Below are positions 19,947 to 29,169 of a stretch of 29,169 nt of DNA, one piece after another (position 1 is the stretch's first letter; every line of letters starts with the position of its first letter). The translations under genes were made by a program, and so were the position numbers. The DNA lies in IMG/VR virus record IMGVR_UViG_3300020043_000889, positions 1-29,169 of that record; one strand, given 5' to 3'. This DNA is from a virus (Duplodnaviria > Caudoviricetes). The notes under the pieces were generated by a model. The model was not told the DNA's origin. It saw only the letters and a list, made by a program, of their open reading frames with translations, and searched no databases.

Positions 19947-20050
19947 AAACCCAATACCTGTATAGGTTTTAATAACTTGCATTGGGTATGGCTGGCAGGG
20001 CATACTTGATGTATGGGGAAGTACCCCACGCTCAAGAGGAGGGCATTATG
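19947..20050 (+). promoter_or_regulatory. Promoter/leader cassette, copy 1
   Basis: AAACCC-N12-GGTTTT dyad, then TTGCAT(19977)-N18-CATACT(20001), then ATGGGGAAGTACCCCACGCTCAAGAGGAGGGCATTATG. Confidence 0.75.
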
Positions 20051-25562: not shown

Positions 25563-25669
25563 AAACCCATGCTGGATATGGGGTTTCTGAATGATTTGCA
25601 ATCAGTCGTGGGATTCCCTATATTTGAGGCATGGGGAAGTACCCCAGTCTCAAGAGGAGGGACATCATG
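25563..25669 (+). promoter_or_regulatory. Promoter/leader cassette, copy 2
   Basis: AAACCC-N12-GGGTTT dyad, then TTGCAA(25596)-N17-TATATT(25619), then ATGGGGAAGTACCCCAGTCTCAAGAGGAGGGACATCATG. Confidence 0.75.
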
Positions 25670-25990
25670 GAAACAAGAGTTGTAAGAGGAATTGAAATCC
25701 AAGTAATCACTGTTGATGAATGGGACACAGTTTCATTGGAACAGAAAGAACAGAACGCAAAGAAGCACAATCGTGCAACACATGGCATTGAACCATGTCA
25801 CCTTTGTGGACAAACGATCAGCGACAAGTCGCTTCCTACATCATGGTATGTACATATGTCCACAAATTGCGAACTTTTGCCAATCGGAATTGAAATCGTT
25901 GAAGGTTCACAGGGATACTTCCCAATCGGCGCATCATGCGCAAAGCGAATCCCAAAGGCGTACAAAACGAAAATGGAGGGAATGTTCTAA
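25667..25990 (+). CDS. Hypothetical early protein (Cys-containing)
   Basis: RBS before ATG 25667, with an in-frame alternative ATG at 25631. PCHLCG...FPIGASCAKR. Confidence 0.75.
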   Translation: METRVVRGIEIQVITVDEWDTVSLEQKEQNAKKHNRATHGIEPCHLCGQTISDKSLPTSWYVHMSTNCELLPIGIEIVEGSQGYFPIGASCAKRIPKAYKTKMEGMF

Positions 25991-26051
25991 GGCGAAACTG
26001 GCGCAAGCCAGTCATTGTGGGATGGTCGCCCACGATCTGATGAGCCAGACC
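25991..26051 (+). ncRNA. Type II hammerhead ribozyme
   Basis: GGC-GAAA-CTGGC(GCAA)GCCAG-TC^-ATTGTGGG(ATGGTCG)CCCACGAT-CTGATGA-GCC. All core nucleotides and three stems are present, with a GUC cleavage triplet and a GGTC/GACC pseudoknot. Confidence 0.93.
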
Positions 26052-26072
26052 TGATTCAAGAGGAGGATCAAA

Positions 26073-26612
26073 ATGAAACTGATAGCAGCAAAAGAGTGGA
26101 ACAAAGTGTTTATGGAAAACAGCCAGAAGCACAGAATCAAAGTCATTGCAGAACTTCATTCACTTGGCGGTCAAGAACCATATTTTTCTATTACTGGCGA
26201 AGTTGATCGTCAAGCCAAAAATAATCGTTGGATGCCATTTTTGAGTGGTTGCATCCATCAAGAAATACTTGAACACTTCTCGAACCTTCAACCACTTGTT
26301 GCAGTTCATTTGTCTGATGAGCAAGGTGTGCCAATGCACGCTTACGCAAACGCTGCATATTGGGCTGGCTACACAAAATATCAGCAGCGTGATATTCCAA
26401 AGTTGGCAAAGCACCTGCGTGTAACAGAATGGTTTGCGAAAGACTTGATTGGCTGGCTGGAACACCACTACGGAACAGACTTTGATGAACTAACAACACC
26501 AGCAATGGCATGGGCTGGAACTTGCGCAGAAAACGATCTGTTAGAGCAATGGGAAAACCAAGCAAAGTTGGCAAAGTCAATGCTCAATGCTGTTGAGGAG
26601 GTTTCAGCATGA
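26073..26612 (+). CDS. Hypothetical early protein (179 aa)
   Basis: TCAAGAGGAGG RBS. YFSITGE...GCIH...HLSD...GVPMHA. Confidence 0.8.
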   Translation: MKLIAAKEWNKVFMENSQKHRIKVIAELHSLGGQEPYFSITGEVDRQAKNNRWMPFLSGCIHQEILEHFSNLQPLVAVHLSDEQGVPMHAYANAAYWAGYTKYQQRDIPKLAKHLRVTEWFAKDLIGWLEHHYGTDFDELTTPAMAWAGTCAENDLLEQWENQAKLAKSMLNAVEEVSA

Positions 26613-27277: not shown

Positions 27278-27352
27278 TCCTGCGGTAAGCCACGCATCCA
27301 GTCTTTCCCCCCTCTTGAGGCTGGATCGCCCATCTGCAATGATGGCGCAGGA
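27278..27352 (+). ncRNA. Candidate small RNA with anti-RBS stem-loop 2 (three-way junction)
   Basis: TATGCT -10-like box at 27265. Closing stem TCCTGCG/CGCAGGA. 10-bp stem ATCCAGTCTT/GAGGCTGGAT with 11-nt loop TCCCCCCTCTT. Second hairpin CCATC/GATGG. Confidence 0.65.
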
Positions 27353-28438: not shown

Positions 28439-29091
28439 GTATCACACTTAAATCAAACATTGTTGAAACACCAAGAGTTATGCAGATAAGAGGAATGTTT
28501 GATATAGAAACACAAAAAACAGAAACAACAACAATAAACGACAATATCCCAGACTTAACAGAAAAAGAATGGAACATTGGTTTAATAGTTGGTGCATCTG
28601 GAACAGGCAAATCAACCATTGCCAAAAAACATTTCAACCAACTGCTAGACCCAGAAGTTCAATGGCAAAACAATGCGCTTATAGATAACTTCCCAAAACA
28701 AAACACACTCAAAGAAATAGTTGCAACGCTCACATCAGTGGGACTGTCAAGCCCACCAACATGGCTGCGACCATACGAAACACTTTCAACAGGAGAAAAG
28801 TTCCGTGCAAACACAGCCAGACTTCTACTAGAACACCCAGAACTGGTAGCAATAGATGAGTTCACATCAGTAGTGGACAGAACAGTTGCACAAATAGCAT
28901 CAACATCAATCAGCAAGACAGTACGAAAAAGAAAACAAAAATTAGTTGCAGTGTCATGTCACTACGACATAATTGAATGGCTACAACCAGATTGGATTTA
29001 CGAACCACAAAGTGGTCAATTCACATGGAGGTCACTTCAACCCAGACCAATCATACAAGCCAACATCATCAAAGTTGATAAAGCAGCGTGA
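28435..29091 (+). CDS. ABC-type ATPase domain protein, probably 3'-truncated
   Basis: Walker A GASGTGKST, signature-like LSTGEK, Walker B AIDEF, H-loop SCH. No TM partner gene. Confidence 0.88.
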   Translation: MSITLKSNIVETPRVMQIRGMFDIETQKTETTTINDNIPDLTEKEWNIGLIVGASGTGKSTIAKKHFNQLLDPEVQWQNNALIDNFPKQNTLKEIVATLTSVGLSSPPTWLRPYETLSTGEKFRANTARLLLEHPELVAIDEFTSVVDRTVAQIASTSISKTVRKRKQKLVAVSCHYDIIEWLQPDWIYEPQSGQFTWRSLQPRPIIQANIIKVDKAA

Positions 29092-29169
29092 CAACTATTT
29101 CTTTGAGTGTGTTTAGTTCTGGGAAGTTATCTATAAGCGCATTGTTTTGCCATTGAACTTCTTGGTCTA
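29085..29169 (-). repeat. 85-nt inverted copy of 28646-28730 at the window end
   Basis: The reverse complement aligns without gaps with 5 mismatches. Confidence 0.92.

Follow-up and report, generated by a model that had tools for sequence, protein, structure and literature searches.

The gap between the stop codon of the first gene in an operon of small genes and the ribosome binding site (RBS) of the next gene is filled, in the phage genome analysed here, by a pseudoknotted type II hammerhead ribozyme. We favour, with moderate confidence, the view that this ribozyme likely cuts the polycistronic message constitutively and that each piece keeps a terminal hairpin.

Fold and position of the ribozyme

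The window, by which we mean the whole stretch of DNA analysed, is an entire virus record of 29,169 nt that is ~90% complete. It carries genes for a terminase, a portal, capsid and tail proteins, a RecE-like exonuclease, an annealing protein and a WhiB factor. Compared with 3,024 phage records, the terminase was best matched by a Pontimonas phage (38.6%) and by phiC31-like Streptomyces phages. Because of these matches and of the WhiB factor, the host is probably an actinobacterium. An 85-nt inverted repeat at the contig end (28646-28730 / 29085-29169, 94% complementary) may be an assembly artefact. The ribozyme locus lies within a run of small genes 3' of a lysozyme-like gene. This operon would be an early one, judging from the type of its genes and from a sigma-70-like promoter candidate (Table 1). 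The candidate is not significant alone, because the promoter scan of the window returned 9 sites versus 13.7 expected; counts in the promoter and terminator scan were no higher than chance. The predicted leader at 25631-25662 is nearly identical to another at 20013-20044, both with a short hairpin and an extended Shine-Dalgarno (SD) sequence, and each stands before a separate run of small genes. No Pfam or PHROG family was matched by the upstream gene (25667-25990). Overlapping ORFs in other frames (25713-26054 and 26015-26206 on the plus strand, 25836-26159 on the minus strand) were dropped, since homologs back 25667-25990 and 26073-26612.

Table 1. Features of the ribozyme locus and of the candidate small RNA (positions in the window)
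Feature	Position	Strand	Remarks
Sigma-70-like promoter candidate	25596-25624	+	TTGCAA-17-TATATT, 9/12 match; similar boxes at the same place in relatives
Predicted 5' leader	25631-25662	+	Short hairpin, then extended SD TCAAGAGGAGG (25650-25660)
Upstream gene	25667-25990	+	107 aa; TAA adjoins the ribozyme; homologs at 74-89% identity with the same end point
Stop codon TAA of upstream gene	25988-25990	+	Directly 5' of stem II
Type II hammerhead ribozyme, whole	25991-26051	+	Rfam RF02276 match 25990-26054, 48.7 bits
Stem II 5' strand and core GAAA	25991-25997	+	GGC 25991-25993; G12-A13-A14-A15.1 at 25994-25997
Stem III hairpin	25997-26012	+	25997-26002 / 26007-26012, GCAA loop; pair probability 0.98 in 25631-26110 context
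Predicted cleavage site	26013-26014	+	GUC^A, between C26013 and A26014 (NUH rule)
Stem I hairpin	26014-26036	+	26014-26021 / 26029-26036, 8 bp, 7-nt loop
Pseudoknot, loop I with 3' tail	26024-26051	+	4 bp, GGUC 26024-26027 / GACC 26048-26051
Core CUGAUGA and stem II 3' strand	26037-26046	+	CUGAUGA at 26037-26043
RBS block	26052-26070	+	Weak predicted hairpin, loop exposes AAGAGGA; extended SD TCAAGAGGAGG at 26056-26066
Downstream gene	26073-26612	+	179 aa; PHROG 17696 (unknown function); homologs
Candidate small RNA	27278-27352	+	Conserved and structured; hairpin loop 27306-27316 complementary to extended SD

The element at 25991-26051 is, by its sequence, a canonical type II hammerhead in which loop I and the 3' tail form a pseudoknot. 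The Rfam model RF02276 (Hammerhead_II) was matched over its full length, with 48.7 bits against a gathering cut-off of 37 (E 2.7e-07). It was the sole one of four Rfam matches in the window at E<=5 to score above its own cut-off, and 0 of 14 control genomes matched this model. At the cut-off level, the genome holds one hammerhead copy. Its topology is that of type II, stems I and III being closed by loops and stem II open. The core nucleotides are all canonical, and CUGANGA, GAAA and NUH meet at a three-way junction. Stem II is formed by GGC 25991-25993 with GCC 26044-26046, pairs that are preserved in 96% of the cells of the alignment described below. In hammerheads, numbered here in the customary way for the core, the cut follows an NUH triplet; because of G26011-U26012-C26013, it is predicted before A26014. 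The minimum free energy fold is the three-helix junction, with a z-score of just -1.47. Pair probability in stem I is 0.97 for the inner pairs and 0.54 for the terminal A-U, and stem II reaches 0.08 in long context under a pseudoknot-free model. The first-pass annotation had described a complete type II hammerhead starting directly after the stop codon TAA and ending 4 nt before the RBS. Each part was found in the place assigned to it, and the hammerhead-model search together with the compensatory pair changes bears out the identity. Two other ribozymes were considered and ruled out: the PK hammerhead of Zhan et al. 2024, described in that source as having a pseudoknot in place of helix II and a pistol-like connectivity (PMC11300833), since stem II is present here, and the glmS riboswitch-ribozyme, since no glmS Rfam match was obtained in the window.

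The RBS block behind the ribozyme leads to the ATG of the downstream gene at 26073. The extended SD TCAAGAGGAGG occurs in exactly three copies in the window, each upstream of a start codon, and in none of 100 shuffles. An identical block is located 3' of a tRNA-like module, presented below, in L122, L133, L136 and L205; the block is thus not a part of the ribozyme. In a model without pseudoknots, the predicted cost of opening the SD is 3.7-4.1 kcal/mol in the uncut and 3.7 in the cut message (2.9 in whole-leader context). A cleavage-gated RBS, with the SD hidden until the cut, is unsupported, as this cost hardly changes in the pseudoknot-free model.

Close copies and covariation

Close copies of the ribozyme were retrieved by pattern scans in L001, L024, L061, L078 and L098, making six with the window. 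The metagenome pattern scan gave 49 matches, with hammerheads in L024 and L037 only and the others due to chance; the eight matches of a looser viral pattern comprised three new contigs, one known contig and four chance hits. In 6/6 close copies, the TAA at the front terminates the upstream ORF in frame; these copies are flanked by four kinds of upstream gene and five kinds of downstream gene. L024 is identical to the window at 25988-26078, a stretch that begins with the stop codon and reaches into the next gene as far as its second codon, and both flanking genes differ. Variation of the core among the close copies is found at N7 (26041) only, in L061, L078 and L098, and N7 is a tolerant core position of hammerheads. 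The L001 pseudoknot is GGUU/AACC in place of GGUC/GACC, i.e. one pair is altered on both sides; compensatory pseudoknot changes are also seen in the copies of Streptomyces phage Animus. Stem III of L001 differs from that of the window, with a mismatch adjoining the core.

An alignment of 11 rows (9 distinct) was built from the six close copies, one copy from L037 and four Streptomyces phage copies picked by likeness out of 13. Paired cells amount to 94.6%, against 28-41% with slid partners. Compensatory changes were found in 7/21 pairs, including 3/6 pairs of stem III and 2/4 pairs of the pseudoknot changed on both sides, and in 23 cells versus 8.2 after shuffling; the observed pair count was reached by 61/500 shuffles and the observed cell count by 0/500, and the pair figures are indicative only and inflated because the rows are few and related and the structure was derived from the window sequence.

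The ribozyme is present in 4/23 family loci and is, on this distribution, a dispensable element. Assembled Logan contigs of four sequencing runs, out of five with small word shares, were compared with the window. Contigs of run X4 carry the ribozyme block with further, different flanking sequences, which supports mobility of the ribozyme and has no bearing on transcription or cutting. Two X4 contigs cover the ribozyme, with a mutual overlap of 30 nt; as neither extends 31 letters to both sides of the cut site, they are uninformative on cleavage. Runs X1 and X2 each gave a single contig, on the small RNA region; since these runs may be DNA and were found through that very region, they carry no weight here.

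The slot between stop codon and RBS

In the operons of this family, gaps of ~80-110 nt from the stop codon to the extended SD hold a hammerhead of the window type, another type II hammerhead or a tRNA-like module. Some relatives have an unrelated hammerhead in this slot, others a tRNA-like fold, and others nothing. In the tRNA-like module, a closing stem is combined with a T-loop arm, a small loop that bears GG, and a 3' hairpin, and an anticodon arm is absent. A viral scan returned at least 122 loci. Among the matches listed, 82 distinct cores were counted, 40 of them with both stems (e.g. L004:4915-4975, L136, L114-L234), and an SD plus start codon follows 37 of these 40 versus 3/42 of the others. 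Also among the matches listed, compensatory changes affect 5/11 pairs in a first type (14 rows) and 9/16 pairs in a second type (20 rows), the rows having been preselected for the stems; the module begins 6-16 nt past the stop codon in 26/29 cases. ARAGORN reported no tRNA gene at 12 module loci, and Rfam scans of the loci matched no family to the module. An HDV-like ribozyme was rejected by eye, since the tail offers no partner for P2 and P1 is not directly followed by GG. The 3' hairpin in L067 and L116 can be read as a GAAA-closed stem II similar to window 25989-25997, as though the catalytic part had been deleted; this resemblance may be due to chance. The module is a possible site for RNase P or RNase Z, or possibly a new ribozyme.

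For the L024 gene that follows the hammerhead, L136 has a 94% identical homolog; there a tRNA-like module precedes the gene, and the RBS block is the same. Of the 20 distinct regions upstream of homologs of the downstream gene, one has a hammerhead, nine have a tRNA-like module and ten are plain junctions or promoter leaders; this pool is module-enriched (among the matches listed), includes one weak match and excludes matches short of the relevant protein end. As for the upstream gene (four homologs), a tRNA-like module follows one and neither element follows the other three. Both elements are present in L061, L078 and L098, in different gaps. This distribution of sequences suggests that hammerhead and tRNA-like module are interchangeable parts of the slot. 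A broader picture, which we advance tentatively as a possibility, is that of an mRNA-processing socket in a plug-in operon: the hammerhead would be functionally equivalent to a so far undescribed tRNA mimic that lacks an anticodon and is either processed by RNase P or Z of the host or is a new ribozyme in its own right. Both would release downstream mRNAs that have a structured 5' end together with the standard extended SD, through which a single small RNA of the phage would silence all the units.

Other type II hammerheads were detected with a pattern finder in seven further loci, with GAAA 3-16 nt past the stop codon and an RBS downstream; six of these were scanned with Rfam, giving two matches at E<=1 and none above the cut-off. 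At the unrelated locus L037, less than 2 kb of sequence contains four type II hammerhead patterns, all followed by an RBS and one of them above the Rfam cut-off. The cultured Streptomyces phage Animus (L111, 41500-50793) contains nine type II hammerheads above the cut-off in 9.3 kb, and 9/10 of its intergenic gaps of 79 nt or more hold one hammerhead each. Streptomyces phage Hank144 (L112) contains four in 5 kb, again one to an intergenic gap, and its best copy starts 15 nt past the annotated stop codon. These hammerheads of Animus and Hank144 (Janusvirus) are unannotated in their records. They closely resemble the window ribozyme in stem I, loop, core and pseudoknot, and have the same layout of stop codon, ribozyme and RBS; they differ from it in number (9 and 4 copies within the stretches analysed), in the spacer between stop codon and ribozyme, and in belonging to phages with a cultured host. 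A short repeated motif is seen 5' of several of them.

The first-pass annotation had further predicted that the RBS behind the ribozyme is a target of the candidate small RNA. A scan for this RNA gave 43 matches, of which 22 with the whole fold were kept and 21 dropped, that is 23 loci with the window. Among the 11 loci with loop type A, TCAAGAGGAGG is found upstream in 9, the remaining two loci being incomplete, and the other motif in none. Among those with loop type B, the other motif is found in 12/12, one having additionally a distant type A motif. This covariation of RBS and loop represents one clade split that includes near-duplicate genomes, not many independent events. A near-identical hammerhead occurs in both small-RNA clades, and the RBS behind it carries the motif of the clade in the window, L024, L061 and L098, and neither motif in L078 and L001. 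Ordered by the duplex energy of pairing with the loop, the RBS behind the ribozyme comes fourth among 49 start regions, one of which was set one base off its true position, and the RBS of the upstream gene comes first. When opening costs are included, the window small RNA binds the RBS of the ribozyme with -8.3 kcal/mol versus -7.5 to -8.9 at non-cognate sites, i.e. no energetic preference was found by this measure. A type B pair of small RNA and RBS does show a preference (-11.0 vs -8.5). The prediction is thus supported in that the motif tracks the loop type, and unsupported as regards energetic specificity; on these pairing models, a link between the small RNA and the RBS of the ribozyme is plausible.

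Proposed role and alternatives

The fold, the position and the reuse between different genes were read directly from the sequences, and from them we infer the cutting and the ends of its products. A cut at 26013/26014 would give the upstream mRNA a 3' end that is capped by the stem III hairpin and bears a 2',3'-cyclic phosphate. The downstream mRNA would begin with a 5'-OH inside stem I, as expected from hammerhead chemistry and from the fold, followed by the RBS block; the new 5' end is predicted to have 0-1 unpaired nt. This start would reproduce the layout of hairpin plus extended SD seen at 25631 and 20013 in the promoter leaders. The downstream genes would so form a self-contained and probably longer-lived translation unit, whatever gene has recombined in front, and the hammerhead would be one of several interchangeable parts for the slot. 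A weak point is the pseudoknot of only 4 bp. In a test construct of Perreault 2011, shortening of the pseudoknot from 6 to 4 bp lowered the rate ~20-fold (PMC3088659); by analogy, the window ribozyme may be slow.

The 5'-OH end is a second concern. In Bacillus subtilis, the 5'-OH mRNA left by self-cleavage of glmS is degraded by RNase J1 (PMC3997798), and by analogy such an end can be an entry site for RNase J, which counts against protection. The cut could then destabilise the downstream message and, jointly with the anti-SD small RNA, serve to switch off the early genes. The glmS precedent, the 5' exonucleases of mycobacteria (PMC7509114) in view of a probably actinobacterial host with a WhiB factor, and the RBS motif following the loop type of the small RNA all point in this direction. 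We nevertheless regard it as unlikely, since the new 5' end is predicted to lie within an 8-bp hairpin, the alternatives in the slot (tRNA-like fold, promoter leader hairpin) are all 5' structures, and a hammerhead in nearly every operon gap of Animus is hard to reconcile with pure destruction.

Another view is that the block matters mainly as DNA, as a shared linker for swaps of single genes by the phage's own recombinase, cleavage being incidental or neutral. The identity of window and L024 at 25988-26078 between unrelated genes, the further flanks in the X4 contigs, and the RecE-like exonuclease and annealing protein encoded by the phage are in line with this. Compensatory changes and the restriction of variation to N7 argue instead for selection on the RNA fold, and the same kind of slot is filled by unrelated hammerhead sequences. 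This makes a pure linker distinctly unlikely in our opinion, and linker use and RNA function are anyway mutually compatible.

Translation-gated cleavage appears very unlikely. In this scenario, a ribosome located at the adjoining stop codon would mask stem II and GAAA, and cutting would depend on the frequency of translation of the first gene, which the small RNA could lower. The stop codon is indeed 3 nt from G12 in 6/6 close copies and 3-7 nt away in 6/7 of the other hammerheads, and the RBS of the upstream gene pairs best with the small RNA loop. Tight spacing is, however, common in this compact operon, as seen also for the tRNA-like module among the matches listed; the best Hank144 copy stands further from its stop codon, and the predicted cost of SD opening is unaltered by the cut. 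That the element is inactive or a chance look-alike is extremely improbable in view of the fully canonical core, the E value and the compensatory changes, even though 4/18 consensus hammerheads failed to cut in Perreault 2011 (PMC3088659).

Constitutive cutting between genes, the reading that we prefer, can be compared with known systems. The kind of ribozyme and its setting have been known since 2011, and as a ribozyme this copy is ordinary. The engineered RiboJ insulator is a hammerhead 5' of an RBS that gives a uniform hairpin 5' end regardless of the upstream sequence. RiboJ has another topology and an added hairpin and sits after a promoter; the window ribozyme is natural and inside an operon. 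In prophages, clustered hammerheads cleave in vitro, and processing into gene-length mRNAs was proposed by Perreault 2011 (PMC3088659). These type II hammerheads (RF02276) share with ours the core, the topology, a pseudoknot of >=4 bp, the site between variable small genes and the proposed mRNA processing, as far as described in that source (PMC3088659); they are clustered, whereas the window genome has one copy. Exchange with a tRNA-like module and an RBS tracking an anti-SD RNA, both observed here, are not mentioned in the accessible text of PMC3088659. In phage T7, as reported in PMC4858673, RNase III cuts the polycistronic early message between genes into mono- and dicistronic mRNAs. A polycistronic early message cut between genes is also what is predicted here, with the difference that T7 relies on a host protein enzyme acting on a long hairpin, whereas here the RNA would cut itself and leave a 5'-OH. 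The glmS ribozyme likewise self-cleaves 5' of a coding region to give a 5'-OH mRNA, as predicted in our case, but it is of another class, is ligand-dependent and leads to decay (PMC3997798); the window element is without a ligand domain. The purpose of bacterial and phage self-cleaving ribozymes is described as still open (PMC6765202).

New here are a covarying tRNA-like module, not known to Rfam, in the same slot before homologous genes, and nine hammerheads in the cultured phage Animus. A literature search, mostly of papers free of subscription and of their main text, gave no paper on Streptomyces phage hammerheads, the tRNA-like module or the anti-SD RNA; these RNAs could be contained in the motif files that accompany PMC5737381 or in the PMC3088659 alignments. 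As a cultured phage that harbours nine ribozymes closely related to that of the window, Animus makes the function directly testable. The family constitutes a natural substitution series, in which the element preceding the same genes may be a hammerhead, a promoter hairpin or a tRNA-like fold, or may be missing. Such a series favours a function in the generation of mRNA ends and draws attention to an RNA motif without an Rfam family.
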